Source: Escherichia coli
Lineage (GTDB): Bacteria > Pseudomonadota > Gammaproteobacteria > Enterobacterales > Enterobacteriaceae
NCBI RefSeq assembly: GCF_013122565.1
Contig: NZ_CP053258.1
Strand: one strand, 5' to 3'
DNA: 64,000 bases
Part shown: in pieces, positions 4,048-25,377 of the stretch
Layout of the letters: every line of letters begins with the position of its first letter
How positions within the stretch are numbered: position 1 is the first letter of the stretch
Made by a program: the position numbers and the translations under genes
Notes under the pieces: generated by a model
The model's input: only the letters and a program-made list of their open reading frames with translations
The model's database searches: none
Told to the model about the DNA's origin: nothing

Positions 4048-6493
<2,446 letters not shown>

Positions 6494-6684
6494 GGTGTAA
6501 CAACACTCCGCTGTAGATGACTGTGTACCTCACGCAACGTATCGATGCGCGCAAAGGCCTATTGTGACAAGAAACGGGGGCAATTGTCAGCCCACAAGAC
6601 GCAGAAAGTCACCGAATACAAATAAAAAAGGCACATCAGTAGATGCGCCCTTGAACTTCGTCACATCCCCACTGGGGACAACGC

Positions 6685-6957
6685 TTAGTTTACCGCGTCT
6701 TTCAGTGCCTTACCTGCACGGAAGCTCGGTACTTTAGCGGCAGCGATGGTGATCTCTTTACCGGTCTGCGGGTTGCGACCAGTACGGGCAGCACGCTCTT
6801 TAACGGCAAAAGTACCAAAACCTACCAGTGCTACATCATCCCCTTCTTTCAGAGATTCAGTTACGGAAGCAATAATAGCATCTAACGCACGGCCAGCCGC
6901 AGCTTTAGAGATATCAGCCCCTGCAGCAATCTTGTCGATCAATTGAGATTTATTCAC
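6685..6957 (-). CDS. hupB: Nucleoid protein HU beta subunit
   Basis: 90 aa [29 protein letters not shown] matches HU-beta. Confidence 0.97.
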
Positions 6958-7165
6958 TCTTCTCTTCCTCTTTATAATTTATATCGCACTTGAATCCTTC
7001 AAGGTACGAACGCGCAGCAGTTATATCAGGCCAGCCATCCCCTTACAACACCCCTTAATAAGGGCAAGCCCAATCCGCCATCTAACTTAGCGAGACAAAA
7101 AAAGGCTGGCAAGTCCGAATTAGCCTGCCAGCCCTGTTTTTATTAGTGCATTTTGCGCGAGGTCA

Positions 7166-9520
7166 CTATTTTGCAGTCACAACCTGCATGCCAGACGGTT
7201 CATTTTGCAGCGCCAGAGTCAGAACTTCCTCAATGCGCTTCACAGGATGAATGTCCAGATCGGCAATTACGTTGTCAGGAATCTCTTCCAGATCGCGTTT
7301 ATTTTCGAACGGAATTAACACTGTTTTAATCCCGCCGCGATGCGCTGCCAGTAGTTTTTCTTTCAAACCACCGATCGGCAGTACCTGACCACGCAGAGTG
7401 ATCTCACCGGTCATTGCCACATCGGCACGAACCGGGTTACCGGTCAGGCAAGAAACCAGCGCGGTGCACATAGCAATACCAGCACTCGGACCATCTTTCG
7501 GCGTCGCACCTTCCGGTACGTGGACGTGGATGTCGCGTTTTTCGTAAAAATCAGGGTTGATCCCCAGTTTTTCCGCACGCGCACGAACCACCGTTAATGC
7601 CGCCTGAATGGACTCCTGCATCACTTCGCCGAGCGAACCGGTATAGGTCAATTTGCCTTTCCCCGGAACACATGCGGTTTCAATGGTCAGCAAGTCACCG
7701 CCCACTTCAGTCCACGCCAGACCGGTTACCTGACCGACACGGTTTTCGTTATCCGCGCGTCCATAGTCAAAACGCTGAACACCAAGGTAGTCATGCAGGT
7801 TGTCGCCGTTAATTTCGATATGTTTTAATGACTTATCGAGCAGTAACTGCTTAACCGCTTTACGGCACAGCTTGGAGATTTCACGCTCCAGACCACGCAC
7901 GCCCGCCTCACGGGTGTAGTAACGAATAATGCCGATAATGGCGCTATCGTCGACGGTCAGCTCACCTTTTTTCAGTGCATTACGTTCAATCTGCTTCGGC
8001 AGCAGGTGACGTTTGGCGATGTTCAGTTTTTCATCTTCGGTATAACCGGAGAGGCGAATCACTTCCATACGATCCAGCAGCGGTGCCGGAATGTTCATGG
8101 AGTTCGACGTCGCGACAAACATCACGTCGCTGAGATCGTAATCCACTTCCAGGTAGTGGTCGCTGAACGCTACGTTCTGCTCGGGATCCAGCACTTCAAG
8201 CAGTGCAGAGGCCGGATCGCCTCGCATGTCAGAAGACATTTTGTCGATCTCATCGAGCAGGAACAGAGGGTTTTTCACGCCCACTTTCGCCATTTTCTGG
8301 ATCAGTTTACCCGGCATAGAACCGATGTAAGTACGGCGGTGACCACGGATTTCCGCTTCATCACGCACGCCGCCCAGCGCCATACGGACATATTTACGCC
8401 CGGTGGCTTTGGCAATGGACTGACCCAGGGAGGTTTTACCTACCCCCGGCGGCCCAACCAGGCAGAGGATCGGTCCCTTGATTTTGTTGACACGGCTTTG
8501 AACCGCAAGGTACTCAAGGATGCGATCTTTCACGCGCTCCAGACCATAATGGTCGGTATCAAGGATTTCCTGCGCCTGACGCAGGTCTTTTTTGACCTTG
8601 CTACGCGCATTCCACGGCACCTGAACCATCCAGTCGATATAACCACGCACTACGGTCGCTTCTGCCGACATCGGAGACATCATTTTCAGCTTCTGCAACT
8701 CTGCTTCCGCTTTCTCTTTTGCCTCTTTCGGCATTTTCGCCGCATCGATTTTGCGCTTCAGGGCTTCGTTTTCGTCCGGCGCGTCATCCATTTCACCGAG
8801 TTCTTTCTGAATAGCTTTCATTTGCTCATTCAGATAGTACTCACGCTGGGATTTCTCCATCTGCTTTTTAACGCGGTTGCGAATGCGTTTCTCAACCTGC
8901 AGCAGATCGATTTCCGATTCCATCATTGCCATCAGATATTCCAGACGTTCGTTAACGTCGGACATCTCCAGAACGGACTGTTTGTCAGCCAGTTTCAGCG
9001 GCATATGTGCAGCAATGGTATCCGCCAGACGCGCCGGATCGTCGATGCTATTCAGCGACGTCAGCACTTCTGGTGGGATCTTTTTGTTCAGCTTGATGTA
9101 GCCTTCGAACTGGCTGATTGCAGTACGCACCAGCACTTCCTGTTCCCGCTCATCAATGGTCGGCGACTCCAGATACTCCGCCTTCGCAGAAAAGTGTTCG
9201 CCATTGTCAGAGAGCGCAGAAATACGCGCGCGCTGTAACCCCTCGACCAGCACTTTGACGGTGCCGTCAGGCAGTTTCAGCATCTGCAATATAGAGGCCA
9301 CGGTCCCGACGGTGAAAAGATCGTTTACACCCGGCTCATCCGTTGAAGCTTCTTTCTGCGCGACCAGCATAATTTTTTTATCATGGTCCATCGCCGCTTC
9401 CAGACAACGGATAGATTTTTCCCGCCCGACAAATAAGGGGATGACCATGTGCGGATAAACCACCACATCGCGCAGCGGCAATACGGGGATTTCAATGCGT
9501 TCAGAACGCTCAGGATTCAT
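7166..9520 (-). CDS. lon: ATP-dependent Lon protease
   Basis: 784-aa product from [33 protein letters not shown] track start at 9565 is 15 codons upstream of the K-12 start. Confidence 0.95.
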
Positions 9521-9599
9521 AGAGCTCTCTCTTAGTTTAATTTCCGCCAGGTAATCAGATGACACGACTGTGCTTCACGCCATCTATTAACATGTACGT

Positions 9600-9632
9600 C
9601 AGTATATGGGGATGTTTCCCCCACATTCAACG
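9600..9632 (-). promoter_or_regulatory. Sigma-32 heat-shock promoter of lon (minus-strand CTTGAA-like -35, CCCCATAT -10)
   Basis: Reverse complement reads ttgaatgtgggggaaacatCCCCATATa; fits sigma-32 consensus. Confidence 0.45.
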
Positions 9633-9644
9633 CCGAGAATAGAG

Positions 9645-9690
9645 GAAAAATTAAAGGGGAGATAAAATCCCCCCTTTTTGGTTAACTAAT
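9645..9690 (-). terminator. Putative clpX terminator hairpin with flanking A/T runs
   Basis: GGGGA...TCCCC stem followed by T-run on both strands, just downstream of the clpX stop. Confidence 0.4.
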
Positions 9691-9707
9691 TGTATGGGAA
9701 TGGTTAA

Positions 9708-10982
9708 TTATTCACCAGATGCCTGTTGCGCTTCCGGCTTGCCATAAATCAGCAACGGTTTGCTTTGACCATCAATTACCGACTCGTCGATAACCACTTT
9801 TTCGACATCTTCCATGGACGGCAGATCGTACATGGTATCGAGCAGTGCGGCTTCTACGATGGAACGCAGGCCACGGGCACCGGTTTTACGCGCCATCGCT
9901 TTCTTAGCGATAGCATCCAGCGCCTCGTCACGGAATTCCAGATCCACGCCTTCCAGATTAAACAGCGCCTGATACTGCTTGGTCAGGGCGTTTTTCGGCT
10001 CTTTGAGGATCTGAATCAGAGCTTCTTCGCTCAGTTCATTCAACGTTGCGACAACCGGCAGACGACCAATAAACTCAGGGATAAGACCAAACTTGATCAG
10101 ATCTTCCGGTTCAACCTGCGCCAGCAGCTCGCCCTCGCTTGCTTTGTCGGACTTCGCTTTTACCGTCGCGCCAAAACCAATGCCGGAGCCGGTTTCTACA
10201 CGATGGGAAATCACTTTATCCAGACCGGCAAACGCACCGCCACAAATAAACAGGATCTTGGAGGTATCAACCTGCAAGAATTCCTGCTGCGGATGTTTAC
10301 GCCCACCTTGCGGTGGAACAGCAGCTACCGTACCTTCGATCAGTTTCAACAGTGCCTGCTGTACGCCTTCACCGGAAACGTCACGGGTAATAGACGGGTT
10401 GTCTGACTTACGAGAAATCTTGTCGATTTCATCGATGTAGACAATCCCGCGCTGCGCTTTCTGTACGTCGTAATCGCACTTTTGCAACAGCTTCTGAATG
10501 ATGTTTTCAACGTCTTCGCCCACATAACCGGCTTCGGTCAGCGTGGTTGCGTCGGCCATGGTGAACGGGACGTCCAGCAGGCGCGCCAGCGTTTCAGCCA
10601 GCAGCGTTTTACCGGAACCGGTCGGACCGATCAGCAGAATGTTACTTTTGCCCAACTCGACACCATTGCTGGTATCGCCGTTGCGCAGACGTTTGTAATG
10701 GTTGTATACCGCGACCGCCAGCACTTTTTTCGCCTGTTCCTGGCCGATAACGTAATCGTCCAGGTGGTTGCGAATTTCATGCGGCGTCGGTAGCGCACTG
10801 CGTTCACGATGCGGTGCAACTTCTTTAATCTCTTCGCGAATGATGTCGTTACATAAATCAACACATTCGTCGCAGATATACACGGATGGACCGGCAATCA
10901 GCTTGCGCACTTCATGCTGGCTTTTGCCGCAAAAAGAGCAATACAGCAATTTGCCTGAGCCATCTTTGCGTTTATCTGTCAT
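9708..10982 (-). CDS. clpX: ATP-dependent Clp protease ATP-binding subunit ClpX
   Basis: 424 aa, zinc-binding CSFCGK...CDEC and Walker A GPTGSGKT. Confidence 0.97.
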
Positions 10983-11107
10983 GGGTCAAAACCTCTTCTT
11001 TGTTCTTTGTGCCGCACACGACGACGCAAATGCCATTCTCAGGCGCAAGCCGCTTACAGCGTTGTGCCGCCCTGGATAAGTATAGCGGCACAGTTGCGCC
11101 TCTGGCA

Positions 11108-11731
11108 TCAATTACGATGGGTCAGAATCGAATCGACCAGACCGTATTCCACCGCTTCAGGGGCGGAAAGGAAGCGATCGCGCTCGGTATCACGTTCAAT
11201 CTGTTCTAATGATTGACCCGTATGAAGCGCCATAAGTTCATTCATGCGCCCTTTAACTTTCAGAATTTCACGGGCATGAATTTCGATATCGGTCGCCTGG
11301 CCCTGGTAGCCGCCCAACGGTTGGTGAATCATCACGCGCGAATTCGGCAGGCAGAAACGTTTACCTTTTGCCCCTGCGGTCAGCAAGAAAGCGCCCATAG
11401 AGGCCGCCTGGCCCATACAGATGGTGCTGACATCAGGTTTGATAAACTGCATGGTGTCATAGATAGACATCCCGGCAGTAATCACCCCGCCTGGAGAGTT
11501 AATGTAGAGATAGATATCTTTTTCTGGGTTTTCTGCTTCCAGGAACAGCATCTGCGCCACAATCAGGTTAGCCATGTGGTCTTCAACCTGGCCAGTCAGA
11601 AAAATGACGCGTTCCTTAAGTAGACGAGAATAGATATCAAAAGAGCGCTCACCTCGTGAGGTCTGTTCAATGACCATCGGCACCAGCGCCATATGGGGTG
11701 CAAAGTTATCTCGTTCGCCGCTGTATGACAT
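11108..11731 (-). CDS. clpP: ATP-dependent Clp protease proteolytic subunit ClpP
   Basis: 207 aa, matches ClpP. Confidence 0.97.
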
Positions 11732-11976
11732 TTCCGTCTCCTGGATAAAATTGAAAAAACCTGCTGTACCGATTGTAACCTTATGGACGGATTATCAGCT
11801 AGTCCCTGTGTTATGGGTACGGCATCACCATATTTCAAGCATAACAATCTTTTGTTGTTACGCTAACACCGAAAGAGGCTTTTCGCACGGTTCCATGCAA
11901 AATTCATGACAAAAAAAAGCCCACCACCTGGCGGTGACGGGCCTTTGTGCGAATTTAGCGCGTTATGCTGCGTAAA

Positions 11977-13284
<1,308 letters not shown>

Positions 13285-16338: not shown

Positions 16339-16797
16339 TCTGTAAATATTATTTAGCCGTAGTAATCACTCGCCGTAATTATTACGGCTAAATAAACATC
16401 AGCATCGCTTATTAATATTTGTTCTTTTGTGCGGCTTAGCATTTGGAAATTATTGACGCCAATTATAAATTCTATTTTTCTTACACGATTCAGCTAATGA
16501 ATCTTTATTTTCTCACCACCCAGTTGTCACTTTAATGATAATTATTTGTTAAATAATTGTTTTATTTTATATTGGTTATACCAATTGCCCGCCAAAACGC
16601 CTTCTGCACTACCCTTTCGTTATAACGCCCTTTTGCAACAGCTTCTTAAAATCAACTTGATATGTTTTGCAACATATGTGACCTGATAGCCAAATCCAAG
16701 TAACAGGAATTTAATCATGTTTACAGTAATGTAACCTTCCCGTAAAATGCCCACACACTTTAAACGCCACCAGATCCCGTGGAATTGAGGTCGTTAA
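16339..16797 (+). promoter_or_regulatory. AT-rich cyoABCDE promoter/regulatory region, including ampG terminator hairpin near 16349-16393
   Basis: 460-bp AT-rich intergenic region upstream of cyoA; near-perfect inverted repeat ttagccgtagtaat/attattacggctaa just after the ampG stop. Confidence 0.5.
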
Positions 16798-17745
<948 letters not shown>

Positions 17746-20702: not shown

Positions 20703-21593
20703 ATGATGTTTAAGCAATACCTGCAAGTAACGAAACCAGGCATCATCTTTGGCAACCTGATCTCGGTGATTGGGGGATTCCTACTGGCCTCAAAGGGCAG
20801 CATTGATTATCCCCTGTTTATCTACACGCTGGTTGGGGTGTCACTGGTTGTGGCGTCGGGTTGTGTGTTTAACAACTACATCGACAGGGATATCGACAGA
20901 AAGATGGAAAGGACGAAGAATCGGGTGCTGGTTAAAGGCCTGATCTCTCCTGCTGTCTCGCTGGTGTACGCCACCTTGCTGGGTATTGCTGGCTTTATGC
21001 TGCTGTGGTTTGGCGCGAATCCGCTGGCCTGCTGGCTGGGGGTGATGGGCTTTGTGGTTTATGTCGGTGTTTATAGCCTGTACATGAAACGCCACTCGGT
21101 CTACGGCACATTGATTGGTTCGCTCTCAGGCGCTGCGCCGCCGGTGATTGGCTACTGTGCGGTAACCGGCGAGTTCGATAGCGGCGCAGCGATCCTGCTG
21201 GCTATCTTCAGCCTGTGGCAGATGCCTCACTCCTATGCCATCGCCATTTTCCGCTTTAAGGATTACCAGGCGGCAAACATTCCGGTACTGCCGGTGGTAA
21301 AAGGCATTTCGGTGGCGAAGAATCACATCACGCTGTATATCATCGCCTTTGCCGTTGCCACGCTGATGCTCTCTCTTGGCGGTTACGCTGGGTATAAATA
21401 TCTGGTGGTCGCCGCGGCGGTGAGCGTCTGGTGGTTAGGTATGGCCCTGCGCGGTTATAAAGTTGCTGATGATCGAATCTGGGCGCGCAAGCTGTTCGGC
21501 TTCTCTATCATCGCCATCACTGCCCTCTCGGTGATGATGTCCGTTGATTTTATGGTGCCGGACTCGCATACGCTGCTGGCTGCTGTGTGGTAA
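20703..21593 (+). CDS. cyoE: Protoheme IX farnesyltransferase (heme O synthase)
   Basis: 296-aa product from [22 protein letters not shown] track start is 15 codons upstream. Confidence 0.95.
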
Positions 21594-21608
21594 CACAACC
21601 TCTCTATT

Positions 21609-21636
21609 AAAAAGGTGCTACGGCACCTTTTTTATT
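21609..21636 (+). terminator. Rho-independent terminator of the cyo operon
   Basis: aaaaAGGTGCtacgGCACCTtttttatt: GC stem, 4-nt loop, T-run. Confidence 0.7.
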
Positions 21637-21646
21637 GTCTGAGATC

Positions 21647-21724
21647 AGAGATACGGCTAATAACCGTATCTCTTGACAGAGTGAGCAGATGCACATAAAT
21701 TAATCATACGGTTGATAGCCGTAT
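21647..21724 (+). promoter_or_regulatory. Promoter with two ATACGG-N7-CCGTAT palindromes, candidate operators of the antitoxin-toxin operon
   Basis: Palindrome 1 at 21647-21673 (agagATACGGctaataaCCGTATctct), TTGACA -35 at 21673-21678, TAAATT -10-like at 21696-21701, palindrome 2 at 21706-21724 (ATACGGttgatagCCGTAT). Confidence 0.55.
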
Positions 21725-21777
21725 TATGTATGAGATCGACTCCCTACGATTTCATTCAGTTAATCAAAGAGGTCACA

Positions 21778-22089
21778 ATGCCTGGAAAAACAGCCACTCT
21801 ACCCGATGTCGATAAAACGCTGAAAAATGCGCGGGTTGAACTCAAAACCAGTCCCGACGCCAAAAACAGACTTCGTGAAGCTGCGCAAGCCGTTGGGTTA
21901 GATTTAAGCGCCTTTATTTTGAGCGCTGCTATGGAACGCGCCGAAAGCGTGCTTGATAACCAACGTCGCCGTGAGCTTTCGAATCAAAGCTGGGAACTGA
22001 TGAACCAACTCATCGCCGAACCTGCTCAACCGACGCTCGCACTCAAGGCGTTAATGAAAAGGAAAAACAGCGATGGTCGACAAGCATGA
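21778..22089 (+). CDS. DUF1778 (RHH-fold) antitoxin of a GNAT-toxin type II TA module (TacA/AtaR-like)
   Basis: About 103 aa from MPGKTATLPD with AAGAGG RBS 7 nt upstream; motif LSAFILSAAMERAESVL typical of DUF1778 antitoxins; 17-nt overlap with the downstream toxin; absent from this junction in K-12. Confidence 0.75.
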   Translation: MPGKTATLPDVDKTLKNARVELKTSPDAKNRLREAAQAVGLDLSAFILSAAMERAESVLDNQRRRELSNQSWELMNQLIAEPAQPTLALKALMKRKNSDGRQA

Positions 22090-22615
22090 AGAGATTACTC
22101 TGCCCATAGTCCTCTCCTGTAATTATCAGTCTGATATTACTTATCCTGGGCAAAAACAGTTTGATTGCGGTAACCCTGTTATCGATAAATTTGTACGCAC
22201 ATCGCTAAAGAAAAGTGTGCGTAATAGCGACTGTGCGGCTAAAGCACTTATTGACAGACAAAGTGGTGAACTGATTGGCATCTGTACTTTTACGGCATAT
22301 TCGCTGGAAAAACAACGCGTTTCTGGCGTCCTTCAGGGTTCACAGCCTTCAGAGATTGGTGTTGTCAGATTAGTCATGTTGGGGGTGGCGCGGAAGTATC
22401 AAAAGCGGGGCTTTGGTCAGGACCTACTATGTGATTTTTTTGAACATGTAAAAATAATTCACCAGGCATTACCAATTAAAGGGGTTTATCTTGATGCTGA
22501 CCCTGCCGCCATTAACTTTTATGCTCGTCTCGGCTTTGTTCAGCTTTCAGCGACACCAAATGCTTTTGGTGCTGTACCTATGTTTTTGGCGATTCAGCAT
22601 ATTCTCGCGGCTTAG
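22073..22615 (+). CDS. GNAT-family acetyltransferase toxin (TacT/AtaT/ItaT-like, probable aminoacyl-tRNA acetylating)
   Basis: 180 aa; acetyl-CoA-binding motif VRLVMLGVARKYQKRGFGQDLL and C-terminal FYARLGF; operonic with the DUF1778 antitoxin. Confidence 0.75.
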   Translation: MVDKHEEITLPIVLSCNYQSDITYPGQKQFDCGNPVIDKFVRTSLKKSVRNSDCAAKALIDRQSGELIGICTFTAYSLEKQRVSGVLQGSQPSEIGVVRLVMLGVARKYQKRGFGQDLLCDFFEHVKIIHQALPIKGVYLDADPAAINFYARLGFVQLSATPNAFGAVPMFLAIQHILAA

Positions 22616-22629
22616 ATTATTATCGCCAC

Positions 22630-22668
22630 CCGCCAGGGCAAGTCTTGCCTCAGCCGGGGGCTGAGTAG
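22630..22668. terminator. Hairpin between the convergent toxin and Sel1-repeat genes, putative bidirectional terminator
   Basis: CTCAGCCgggGGCTGAG inverted repeat at 22649-22665. Confidence 0.45.
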
Positions 22669-22670
22669 CG

Positions 22671-23606
22671 TTACCACTTTTGTTCAATTGCCCCCGCTTT
22701 CAGCAACTCCACATCCTTGCCGTTAATGGTTGCCGTTGCGGCAACGATTGTGGTCCTTACAGTTGCACAAGATTTTCGCTCAAATTCCGGTTTATAAAGA
22801 ATTAGAGACGAATTACTGGTAAATGAATCAAATATGTAATCAGTAAAGCTAATATTCAGCCGGTTTAAACCGAAAGGCGCGAAGCCAACCGTTTGGTTAA
22901 TCTCTTTACCGGATGGGCTACGAATGCTGAATGTCACGCGAAGATTGGCCACTTCGCCTAATTTATTGGTGGTGACGAAGAGGCTATCCATGCAGGAAAA
23001 ACCTTTATCTAAAAAATTATCCCGCATCCCAGAACGGGTAACCGTGATCACGGGTAATGTATCGTCAACCGTTTTTCTGTCAATCATGTCTTTTCGACAT
23101 GTAGCCAGAAAGTCTTCCGGACCACCATAAATGTGGACACCTTTATCAAGATATTCCTTCGCTTTCTTACAATCTACCTCAACATACTGACCATTGGCGT
23201 ACATCATGCCCAACCTGGACCATGCTAAATTCACACCGTATTGCGCGGCCTGATTAAATAGTGCATACGCTTTGGCATAATCCACCCGCACCAGCTCACC
23301 GTCGTAGTAGATACTCCCCAGCGCTAACGGAGCTTCTCTGTCACCGTGTTTAGCGGCTAACTCGAACCATTTAATCGCTTCCTGAACATCAGGTTTGGTA
23401 TCATAACGAGGCTGATAATATTCCCAGCCTAACAGGCTCTGCGCGTCGACATCTCCCAATTCAGCCATTTTATGCAGTGTATTTATAACATCGGGCGCAG
23501 GTTGACCACCATATATGCTGTCATACAATTCATGAGCTTTCTCGCTTGCCACCACGCCTGGTGAAACTATTAGCATTAAAGAAAATAATATTCTTTTAGT
23601 TAACAT
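22671..23606 (-). CDS. Secreted Sel1-repeat (TPR-like) protein with uncharacterised beta-rich C-terminal domain
   Basis: Likely start at internal Met giving MLTKRILFSLMLIVSPGVVA signal peptide; about three Sel1 repeats (LGWEYY, LGSIYYDG, LGMMYANG); AT-rich; absent from this junction in K-12. Confidence 0.7.
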   Translation of the reverse strand: MLTKRILFSLMLIVSPGVVASEKAHELYDSIYGGQPAPDVINTLHKMAELGDVDAQSLLGWEYYQPRYDTKPDVQEAIKWFELAAKHGDREAPLALGSIYYDGELVRVDYAKAYALFNQAAQYGVNLAWSRLGMMYANGQYVEVDCKKAKEYLDKGVHIYGGPEDFLATCRKDMIDRKTVDDTLPVITVTRSGMRDNFLDKGFSCMDSLFVTTNKLGEVANLRVTFSIRSPSGKEINQTVGFAPFGLNRLNISFTDYIFDSFTSNSSLILYKPEFERKSCATVRTTIVAATATINGKDVELLKAGAIEQKW

Positions 23607-24012
23607 GTATACCTTTATGTCCTCACTGTCATATATTTCCATAATAATTAACCACCAAGCATCCATTTAATGAATAAATACAGTGCCATAAATGCCCAAG
23701 TAATAAGCACACATTTAGCCTGAAACATTATCATCCATGTCACCAAATCGTTTATTTAGTAAGATAAAACTAGCATATTCGTAAGATAAAAAATGCACAT
23801 GGTAATCAAGAAATGATATTATTATTTTTTTGATGTAAAACTATTTAGCTTTAAAATTCATTTTTTCAACATATAGAGCATTCATTTTATGAATGCAAAA
23901 AACATACCTGACACACAAATTATTCTCCTCTGTAATATTTTCTCATTAACACTCTGTTTACCCAACATGCGCTCCGCACTACACTATGTGGGCATTTTTT
24001 TAAGAGGTGGTA

Positions 24013-25377
24013 ATGAACGATTATAAAATGACACCAGGTGAGCGGCGCGCGACCTGGGGTTTAGGAACCGTTTTCTCGTTGCGCATGCTGGGCATGTTTA
24101 TGGTTCTGCCGGTTCTGACCACGTACGGCATGGCTCTGCAAGGTGCCAGCGAAGCATTAATCGGTATTGCCATTGGTATTTATGGTCTGACTCAGGCCGT
24201 TTTTCAGATTCCGTTTGGCCTGCTTTCCGACCGCATTGGTCGCAAACCATTAATTGTCGGTGGGCTGGCGGTGTTTGCCGCCGGTAGCGTTATCGCTGCG
24301 CTTTCTGACTCCATCTGGGGAATTATTCTGGGCCGGGCGCTACAAGGCTCCGGTGCGATTGCCGCTGCCGTTATGGCGCTGCTTTCCGATCTCACGCGCG
24401 AACAAAACCGCACCAAAGCGATGGCGTTTATCGGCGTGAGCTTTGGCATTACCTTCGCCATTGCGATGGTGCTTGGCCCAATCATCACTCACAAACTTGG
24501 GCTGCACGCGCTGTTCTGGATGATCGCTATTCTGGCAACGACCGGCATTGCATTGACCATTTGGGTTGTGCCCAACAGTAGCACTCACGTACTTAATCGT
24601 GAGTCCGGAATGGTGAAAGGCAGTTTCAGTAAAGTACTGGCGGAACCGCGGCTGCTGAAACTCAACTTTGGCATTATGTGTCTGCACATGCTTCTGATGT
24701 CTACGTTTGTTGCCCTGCCCGGACAGCTGGCTGATGCGGGGTTCCCGGCGGCTGAACACTGGAAGGTCTACCTGGCAACGATGCTAATCGCCTTTGGCTC
24801 GGTCGTGCCTTTCATAATCTACGCTGAAGTTAAGCGCAAAATGAAGCAAGTCTTTGTCTTCTGCGTCGGGTTGATCGTGGTTGCGGAAATTGTGTTGTGG
24901 AACGCACAAACGCAGTTCTGGCAACTGGTAGTCGGCGTGCAGCTTTTCTTTGTGGCGTTTAATTTGATGGAAGCCCTTCTGCCCTCACTTATCAGTAAAG
25001 AGTCGCCAGCAGGTTACAAAGGTACGGCGATGGGTGTTTACTCCACCAGCCAGTTTCTTGGCGTGGCGATTGGCGGTTCGCTGGGCGGCTGGATTGACGG
25101 CATGTTTGACGGTCAGGGTGTATTTCTCGCTGGCGCAATGCTGGCCGCAGTGTGGCTGGCAGTCGCCAGTACCATGAAAGAACCGCCGTATGTCAGCAGC
25201 TTACGCATTGAAATCCCTGCGGACATTGCCGCAAACGAAGCGTTAAAAGTACGTTTGCTGGAAACTGAAGGCGTCAAAGAAGTGTTGATTGCAGAAGAAG
25301 AACATTCAGCTTATGTGAAAATCGACAGCAAAGTGACGAATCGCTTTGAGGTTGAACAGGCAATTCGTCAGGCATAA
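24013..25377 (+). CDS. yajR: MFS transporter YajR
   Basis: 454-aa product from MNDYKMTPGERRATWGLGTVFSL; AAGAGG RBS; ORF track start at 24007 is an upstream GTG. Confidence 0.92.
   Translation: MNDYKMTPGERRATWGLGTVFSLRMLGMFMVLPVLTTYGMALQGASEALIGIAIGIYGLTQAVFQIPFGLLSDRIGRKPLIVGGLAVFAAGSVIAALSDSIWGIILGRALQGSGAIAAAVMALLSDLTREQNRTKAMAFIGVSFGITFAIAMVLGPIITHKLGLHALFWMIAILATTGIALTIWVVPNSSTHVLNRESGMVKGSFSKVLAEPRLLKLNFGIMCLHMLLMSTFVALPGQLADAGFPAAEHWKVYLATMLIAFGSVVPFIIYAEVKRKMKQVFVFCVGLIVVAEIVLWNAQTQFWQLVVGVQLFFVAFNLMEALLPSLISKESPAGYKGTAMGVYSTSQFLGVAIGGSLGGWIDGMFDGQGVFLAGAMLAAVWLAVASTMKEPPYVSSLRIEIPADIAANEALKVRLLETEGVKEVLIAEEEHSAYVKIDSKVTNRFEVEQAIRQA

Follow-up and report, generated by a model that had tools for sequence, protein, structure and literature searches.

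A predicted exported protein of Escherichia coli that joins Sel1 repeats to a divergent, probably IrmA-related beta-sandwich

The stretch of Escherichia coli DNA analysed here (the window; 64,000 nucleotides of contig NZ_CP053258.1, RefSeq assembly GCF_013122565.1) carries, between cyoE and yajR, a gene of the minus strand (22671-23606) whose 311-residue product is predicted to be exported and to consist of an N-terminal module of Sel1 repeats followed by a C-terminal beta-sandwich. Sequence profiles and a predicted structure agree that the C-terminal domain probably belongs to the IrmA family, though as a very divergent copy, and is homologous to the interleukin receptor mimic protein A of uropathogenic E. 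coli (UPEC) (IrmA, C1275; Pfam PF18673; PDB 5ek5). The domain is filed as IrmA-like, not as IrmA, because it misses the Pfam threshold and, unlike IrmA itself, does not stand alone, is not encoded beside agn43-yeeR, and has neither an acidic surface nor a long tail for domain swapping. The fusion of Sel1 repeats with an IrmA-like domain is a new domain architecture assembled from known parts, and the family that has it is very small. The parts of the gene and its product are as follows, where AF2 stands for AlphaFold2, pLDDT for the predicted local distance difference test, and FNIII/Ig-like for fibronectin type III/immunoglobulin-like.

22671-23606, minus strand: coding sequence of the Sel1 plus IrmA-like protein, 311 amino acids plus stop (open reading frame list, translation, RefSeq)
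23612-23615, minus strand: AAGG, resembling a Shine-Dalgarno sequence, 5 nt before the start codon (ATG at 23606; read from the sequence)
23547-23606, minus strand: predicted signal peptide, residues 1-20, MLTKRILFSLMLIVSPGVVA, with SEKAH after the predicted cut (sequence features, hydrophobicity, pLDDT)
23061-23546, minus strand: predicted Sel1-repeat alpha-solenoid module, residues 21-182 (Pfam, PDB sequence matches, AF2)
23142-23447, minus strand: three Pfam Sel1 repeats, residues 54-155, flanked by capping helices within the solenoid module (Pfam)
22674-23060, minus strand: predicted C-terminal beta-sandwich, residues 183-311, divergent IrmA-like (FNIII/Ig-like), with the conserved motifs TNKLGEVANLRV and AATATINGK
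22992-22994, minus strand: codon of the invariant Cys205, which aligns with IrmA Cys21 (C46 of the precursor; family alignment, hhalign)
22767-22769, minus strand: codon of the invariant Cys280, which aligns with IrmA Cys80 (C105 of the precursor; family alignment, hhalign)

The open reading frame is a real gene, because RefSeq makes an identical coding sequence call in the closest complete genome (WP_112826397.1, labelled 'tetratricopeptide repeat protein') and the ratio of nonsynonymous to synonymous substitution rates (dN/dS) relative to the orthologue in Escherichia sp. is 0.21. This ratio is 0.20 for the Sel1 half and 0.23 for the C-terminal half, and the gene is under purifying selection in both modules. 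The coordinates and strand in a preliminary description, made from the sequence without database searches, are right, with 311 codons plus stop in agreement with RefSeq. A longer open reading frame of 331 codons from 23666, used in some databases, lacks support, because the homologues all begin at the position of the M-x-x-K-R-I-L motif and because AAGG precedes the ATG at 23606 by 5 nt.

Residues 1-20 (MLTKR, then ILFSLMLIVSPGVV, then VVA before the serine of the mature protein) have the n/h/c layout of a signal-peptidase-I substrate, with a hydrophobicity maximum at residues 5-13 and an AF2 pLDDT below 50 over residues 1-19, and the aligned position is conserved among homologues. Thus the signal peptide of the preliminary description is borne out as a prediction, and the protein is likely to be exported via Sec with cleavage by signal peptidase I after A20, leaving a mature protein of ~32.6 kDa. 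The three or so Sel1 repeats that it had noticed are also found by Pfam (PF08238), at residues 54-89 (E-value 2.4e-06), 95-122 (0.0042), and 131-155 (0.0021), of which only the first is strong on its own. The sequences of 25 solved Sel1 proteins in the PDB match residues 25-170, the best being EsiB (c5321 of UPEC strain CFT073; 4bwr; 5.3e-39), and AF2 predicts paired helices from residue 40 to residue 178, mostly with a pLDDT above 85. The two modules are modelled as one rigid unit, because the full-length prediction has a pLDDT of 85.3, a predicted template modelling score of 0.83, and a confident linker between the modules. Four cysteines (C146, C170, C205, and C280) are invariant across the set of full-length homologues; in the wider alignment of the C-terminal domain, C205 and C280 are invariant as well, and C170 is at least 90% conserved.

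By these matches the protein is classified as a bona fide Sel1-repeat protein that is the orthologue of no named one, because all its NCBIfam scores are far under the cut-offs. The matches to MerG, AlgK, MotX, and ExoR lie within the Sel1 repeats and score ~16-29 bits against curated cut-offs of 330-700, which is generic repeat similarity, and the sole PADLOC line, PtuA, is spurious, as it lies within one Sel1 repeat and has 0 stretches that qualify. The likeness of the protein to EsiB, the Helicobacter Hcp proteins, AlgK, MotX, and ExoR consists in tandem Sel1 repeats that form an alpha-solenoid, which is predicted here. Hcp proteins contain disulfides, of which the cysteine pair C146/C170 in the last repeat is reminiscent. 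EsiB has 11 Sel1 repeats whereas this protein has three, and none of EsiB, Hcp, AlgK, MotX, and ExoR carries an IrmA-like beta-sandwich.

The C-terminal region had been described as about 150 beta-rich residues. Its beta-rich character stands, but it is shorter, starting at about residue 183 and comprising ~129 amino acids, because AF2 makes LATCRKDMIDRK (residues 166-178) the final helix of the solenoid. The further statement that this region matches no domain is accurate for the protein taken alone, which has no Pfam match and no NCBIfam match at E<=10 in the region and no match among PDB sequences, yet the region is not an orphan, being probably a divergent sandwich of the IrmA family (PF18673). 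An AF2 model of the domain only, built from 17 sequences, is a beta-sandwich with a pLDDT of 82.6. When 1.84 billion cluster representatives were scanned in full by HMMER, the domain profile matched 30 clusters only. The full-length members examined are proteins of 300-600 amino acids, and in each of them the domain follows Sel1 repeats on the C-terminal side. A Gly/Ser/Ala-rich protein of 167 amino acids (P0057), which lacks Sel1 repeats, matches the profile at E 2e-06 and may be a copy that is degenerate or read in the wrong frame. A match of the domain profile to hemocyanin among PDB sequences (whole-sequence E 4e-8) was dismissed as the sum over a repeated 25-residue motif 'xxFCxFxxxF', present once per functional unit, with i-Evalues for single stretches all >100.

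Evidence for the relationship to IrmA comes from sequences of the family and from a predicted model. In a Pfam scan of the 17 domain sequences, PF18673 appears in six at E<=0.1, two of them at E<=0.001 (best 6.1e-05), and is not approached by any other family. Two full-length relatives match PF18673 at 0.001 (P0022) and 0.011 (P0021, the syntenic paralogue of Pseudocitrobacter), each over approximately positions 15-102 of the 109 in the model; among other paralogues scanned, one of Salmonella (P0047) has no IrmA match and one of Providencia (P0196) has a weak one (E 0.86). When the domain family was compared by hhalign with an IrmA-family alignment built from the CFT073 sequence of IrmA, 83 columns aligned with a score of 22.9 (P 0.0059, probability 6%), a score that 1 of 200 column-shuffled IrmA alignments reaches; by itself this comparison favours kinship and does not decide it. 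The register of this alignment places the invariant C205 and C280 on C46 and C105 of IrmA, which are Cys21 and Cys80 of the mature protein, and a motif A-T-x-x-x-N-G in the penultimate strand is common to the domain family and IrmA. The disulfide Cys21-Cys80 of IrmA is unusual for FNIII domains and was singled out by the authors of its structure (PMC4807369). In the predicted model, the C-terminal domain is an FNIII-like seven-stranded beta-sandwich that can be superposed on 5ek5, and its best structural match is IrmA, with 17% identity.

IrmA and the domain described here are thus alike in being exported FNIII/Ig-like sandwiches of ~125 residues (predicted, in the present case), in the alignment of both invariant cysteines of the domain with the Cys21-Cys80 disulfide, and in belonging to families centered on the Enterobacterales. 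They differ in that IrmA is a stand-alone protein of ~13 kDa whereas the domain makes up the C-terminal half of a fusion with Sel1 repeats, and in that irmA resides on islands, in CFT073 after agn43 and a gene in the position of yeeR, whereas the Sel1 gene is located between cyoE and yajR. IrmA is also acidic (isoelectric point, pI, 4.7) and forms a domain-swapped dimer by means of a long C-terminal tail, unlike the present domain, which is basic (pI 9.0) and has ~10 residues after the aligned region. The island of CFT073 encodes, ~10 kb upstream of agn43-irmA (34724-36438 of the extracted locus, L018), a SEL1-like repeat protein of 378 amino acids and a hypothetical protein of 180 amino acids; the latter was considered as a split IrmA-like domain and rejected, as it has no similarity to the IrmA-like domain family.

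We consider it fairly likely that the protein is a Sec-exported, non-enzymatic, disulfide-stabilised binding protein of two modules, which either stays in the periplasm or envelope or is released; its export, its disulfides, its lack of enzymatic activity, its binding role, and its compartment are each predictions. Signal peptidase I would cut after A20, and the mature protein would fold in the oxidising periplasm, where one disulfide (C146-C170) would form within the final Sel1 repeat and the cap helix and another (C205-C280) would cross the beta-sandwich as the counterpart of Cys21-Cys80 in IrmA. The Sel1 solenoid (residues ~21-182) would be rigidly joined to the FNIII/Ig-like sandwich (residues ~183-311); the groove of the former may hold a protein or peptide partner, and the latter may present a second, fast-evolving surface for recognition or oligomerisation. 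Action by binding and not by catalysis is suggested because there is no catalytic domain or motif and because proteins with the folds of either module work through binding: no catalytic domain was found for this protein in Pfam, NCBIfam, or PADLOC. Its site of action could be the periplasm or envelope, or lie outside the cell after release as reported for IrmA. The gene would be transcribed alone from its AT-rich upstream region and would have no part in the neighbouring ItaR/ItaT module. The label 'putative zinc-dependent hydrolase' on orthologues (AFDB entries A0A0H3MM38, A0A376ZPS8, and A0A376P1S9, including the orthologue in strain IAI39) is probably a propagated misannotation, as there is no hydrolase or metalloprotease domain in Pfam or NCBIfam and no HExxH motif.

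The gene shares a variable block of the chromosome with a toxin-antitoxin (TA) pair, composed of a GNAT toxin and an antitoxin of the DUF1778/ribbon-helix-helix (RHH) type.

21634-23896, no strand assigned: variable block flanked by the cyoE terminator and the upstream region of yajR, holding itaR, itaT, and the Sel1 gene (empty-site comparison)
21778-22089, plus strand: itaR, predicted DUF1778/RHH antitoxin of a size that fits published ItaR; nearest solved relative KacA, 3.5e-11
22073-22615, plus strand: itaT, predicted GNAT toxin, near-identical to PDB 7byy across all 180 residues (1.6e-117)
23616-23896, minus strand: AT-rich region upstream of the Sel1 gene, ~31% GC (composition, consensus scan, repeats)

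This block is a context and not one functional unit. In the window, cyoC-cyoD-cyoE lie to its left and yajR-yajQ to its right; further left, the GC content dips to 0.40 at 16500-17000, upstream of the cyo operon. Of 5426 complete E. coli genomes, 1367 carry the block and the others have an empty site of ~330 bp; the Sel1 gene is full-length in 1363 of the 5426, in keeping with its earlier description as an accessory gene outside the core. Of the two properties that were to tell against that description, a common characterised C-terminal domain and membership of the E. coli core, half is found, in that the domain is characterised but rare and the gene is not core. E. coli carriers of the gene are from humans, chickens and other poultry, cattle, pigs, wild birds, and wastewater. 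Among ~1375 places in E. coli that match the gene or the block, one is on a plasmid and not on a chromosome. The left breakpoint of the block is directly after the cyoE terminator. An integrase, insertion sequence, or tRNA that would mark the block as a mobile element is lacking, as are direct repeats on its flanks. The ~110 bp before yajR (23897-24010) are homologous in carrier and empty-site genomes and, by eye, ~70% identical, compared with ~97% in the flanking genes; the promoter region of yajR seems to exist in two old haplotypes.

Paralogues of the gene occupy the same gap in other genera. In Pseudocitrobacter, the interval from yajR to cyoE contains an IclR regulator, a paralogue of 494 amino acids, a paralogue of 308 amino acids, and then, convergently, a GNAT toxin with a TacA-type antitoxin, before cyoE is reached; an enterobacterial metagenome-assembled genome (MAG) has two paralogues and the antitoxin only. 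In Salmonella enterica (positions 6001-12031 of the extracted locus, L019), the gap contains three Sel1 plus IrmA-like paralogues of 496, 484, and 496 amino acids, a 116-residue remnant of the C-terminal domain of the short paralogue, and no TA pair; it also encodes a secreted protein of 326 amino acids that weakly matches NTF2-like/SgcJ (E 0.0095). Single copies in unrelated contexts, with no TA pair, are present in Affinibrenneria, Providencia, and Achromobacter, and the family extends to Pectobacterium, Morganella, Proteus, and E. fergusonii, with fragments in Shigella. Upstream of the E. coli gene no decayed long paralogue was found, as tblastn with the long and short paralogues of Pseudocitrobacter matches only within the gene itself. 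The Sel1-IrmA gene family is old at the yajR-cyoE locus, because paralogues fill this gap in other genera, and for the same reason the polymorphism in E. coli is more readily explained by retention in some genomes and loss in others, or by exchange through homology of the flanks. The view of the preliminary description that gene and TA pair, lying in the same inserted block, were probably acquired together is too simple: the same gap holds paralogues in Pseudocitrobacter and, with no TA pair, in Salmonella, and other homologues have no TA pair beside them. The TA pair seems to have come to occupy the gap on its own account.

The sequence of the neighbouring pair identifies it as ItaR/ItaT, because the GNAT protein matches 7byy at 1.6e-117 and the sizes of both open reading frames fit the published proteins; the toxin of this module is an aminoacyl-tRNA acetyltransferase. 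PDB entry 7BYY is the structure from the ItaT structure paper, and the proteins of E. coli HS, to which the two open reading frames of the window correspond in size, are of 11.4 kDa (ItaR) and 19.8 kDa (ItaT) (PMC6125619). Upstream of itaR (21647-21724) are two near-identical 19-nt palindromes, ATACGGCTAATAACCGTAT (21651-21669) and ATACGGTTGATAGCCGTAT (21706-21724), which flank the best sigma-70-like promoter (TTGACA at 21673, TAAATT ending at 21701) and look like candidate operators for autoregulation by the RHH antitoxin.

The region upstream of the Sel1 gene has putative regulatory features of its own. A consensus scan found promoter-like hexamers at 23869->23840 and, outside the interval 23616-23896, a second pair at 23946->23919; both pairs are candidate promoters of the Sel1 gene. 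A direct repeat of 22 nt in tandem (23756-23799; TTAGTAAGATAAAACTAGCATA and TTCGTAAGATAAAAAATGCACA), within the 31%-GC region, may be a binding site for a regulator, and H-NS silencing of the gene is suggested because the upstream region is AT-rich. An Rfam scan of 21400-24200 found nothing.

Several observations weigh against the interpretation of the protein as a two-module binding protein with a domain homologous to IrmA. The homology is drawn from converging weak sequence signals and a predicted structure: the protein, whether whole or as the domain alone, does not match PF18673 even at E<=10, HMMER cross-searches of profiles against sequences score less than 7 bits, the hhalign probability is low, as given above, and no IrmA-family entry is among the top 50 Foldseek matches in AFDB50. 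Family members have domains with pI values anywhere between 4.7 and 9.3, so that no common ligand class can be read from net charge, which was discarded as a clue. The loci examined contain no conserved operon partner that would point to a ligand. Searches of the literature for the protein or the locus found no study, and no paper describing a Sel1-IrmA fusion or the gene; one paper mentions STM0438, which could not be linked to the Sel1-IrmA family. The same low scores and missing matches would be expected if the C-terminal domain were a generic Ig-like sandwich in a family of its own, its likeness to IrmA being convergent or an artefact of AlphaFold. This seems improbable, as both invariant cysteines fall on the unusual disulfide of IrmA, the Pfam model, which uses sequence only, reaches 6e-5 on family members with no rival family close, the weak alignments of profiles are consistently in register, and the shuffle control reaches the hhalign score once in 200. 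Homology to IrmA is thus retained as the probable explanation of the domain. A role of the protein as a functional accessory of ItaR/ItaT, for example as the sensor or output of a defence island, is barely credible. The genes are adjacent, are lost or kept together in E. coli, and follow the order cyoE-TA-Sel1 in Pseudocitrobacter also. They are, however, convergent, as the preliminary description had it (itaT ends at 22615 on the plus strand and the Sel1 gene at 22671 on the minus strand), with terminator-like hairpins between the two stop codons, and are probably transcribed separately. The Sel1 product is predicted to be exported, whereas the TA pair is cytoplasmic; ItaRT is a self-contained pair that works when cloned alone (PMC6125619); one MAG retains the antitoxin alone beside Sel1 genes; PADLOC offers no qualifying match; and a TA pair is missing beside the homologues of Salmonella, Affinibrenneria, Providencia, and Achromobacter. 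Neither an accessory of a type II TA system nor a component of a defence island is recognizable on these grounds. The caution of the preliminary description, that a functional linkage was unproven, was well placed, and the comparative data make such a linkage very unlikely. Although it is the immediate neighbour of the ItaR/ItaT module in the same variable block, the Sel1 gene is independent of it, because it is on the opposite strand and has homologues in four genera without a TA neighbour; indeed most homologues of the Sel1 protein do not adjoin this module.

By analogy with proteins of UPEC, a released Sel1-IrmA protein might be a decoy for host factors, its Sel1 module binding secretory immunoglobulin A (SIgA) and its IrmA-like module binding interleukins (IL-2, IL-4, and IL-10). 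EsiB, the top solved match to the Sel1 module, binds SIgA, and the patchy, paralogous, and often decayed distribution of the family is common for host-interaction genes. For IrmA, the best structural match to the C-terminal domain, occurrence in the culture supernatant, in-vitro binding of IL-2, IL-4, and IL-10, and immunogenicity in patients with urosepsis have been described (PMC4807369). On balance a decoy is rather unlikely, because a mammalian cytokine or immunoglobulin A cannot be the ligand common to a family with members in Pectobacterium, Affinibrenneria, Providencia sneebia, Pseudocitrobacter, and Achromobacter. Some of these taxa are associated with plants and insects, and so wide a range of taxa makes it doubtful that the family shares the function of binding a mammal-specific ligand. 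Moreover, no bias toward a pathotype was seen among the E. coli carriers, which come from many hosts as well as the environment, the identity to IrmA is 17% only, and the acidity and long swap tail of IrmA contrast with the basic domain described here and the ~10 residues past its aligned region. The preliminary description had framed Sel1 proteins in terms of interactions between pathogens and hosts; this framing is weak in view of the many hosts and the wastewater from which carriers were obtained, the description of ItaRT from strain HS, and the presence of the family in Pectobacterium, Providencia, and Achromobacter. Another proposal, somewhat less likely still, is that the protein is an orphan immunity protein against toxins that act in the periplasm (effectors of type VI secretion systems (T6SS), of contact-dependent growth inhibition (CDI), or bacteriocins), in which case the yajR-cyoE gap would be an array that diversifies and decays with competitors. 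The periplasmic Sel1-like proteins PA5086-5088 are immunity proteins for PldB, a T6SS phospholipase of Pseudomonas aeruginosa. The tandem paralogues at one conserved site (three and a remnant in Salmonella, two in Pseudocitrobacter), the predicted periplasmic and non-enzymatic nature of the proteins, the fast variation in surface charge, and the frequent loss of the gene, which is missing from 75% of E. coli and fragmentary in Shigella, would all be in accord with immunity, but no effector, T6SS, CDI, or bacteriocin gene adjoins any of the loci examined, PADLOC and NCBIfam give no supporting match, and there is no sequence relation to a known immunity family beyond generic Sel1 repeats.

The binding protein outlined above, with its Sel1 and IrmA-like modules, has several implications. 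For E. coli, it adds one more uncharacterised accessory protein that is predicted to be exported, of modest practical importance until a ligand or phenotype is found. The names 'tetratricopeptide repeat protein' and 'zinc-dependent hydrolase' given in databases say little or are incorrect, and a neighbour of the well-studied ItaRT pair is set apart from that module. A broader reading, which we hold to be unlikely, is that the yajR-cyoE gap of the Enterobacteriaceae is an old array, with fast turnover, of exported Sel1 plus IrmA-like fusions (one to three paralogues and remnants), that the stand-alone IrmA of pathogenic E. coli is an offshoot of this wider domain family, and that the ancestral job of the IrmA fold was in the bacterial envelope or in competition (immunity or adaptor binding) and not in mimicry of cytokine receptors. 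If this were true, IrmA would need reinterpretation, and a new class of periplasmic recognition proteins would be defined. IrmA is structurally odd, has had no relatives described outside its own small family, and is regarded as a mimic of cytokine receptors on the basis of binding in vitro. The finding that an IrmA-like domain is the constant C-terminal module of a small Sel1 family, with a conserved locus in Escherichia, Salmonella, and Pseudocitrobacter, provides an evolutionary context for the IrmA fold, the ancestral function of which becomes testable outside the frame of host mimicry.

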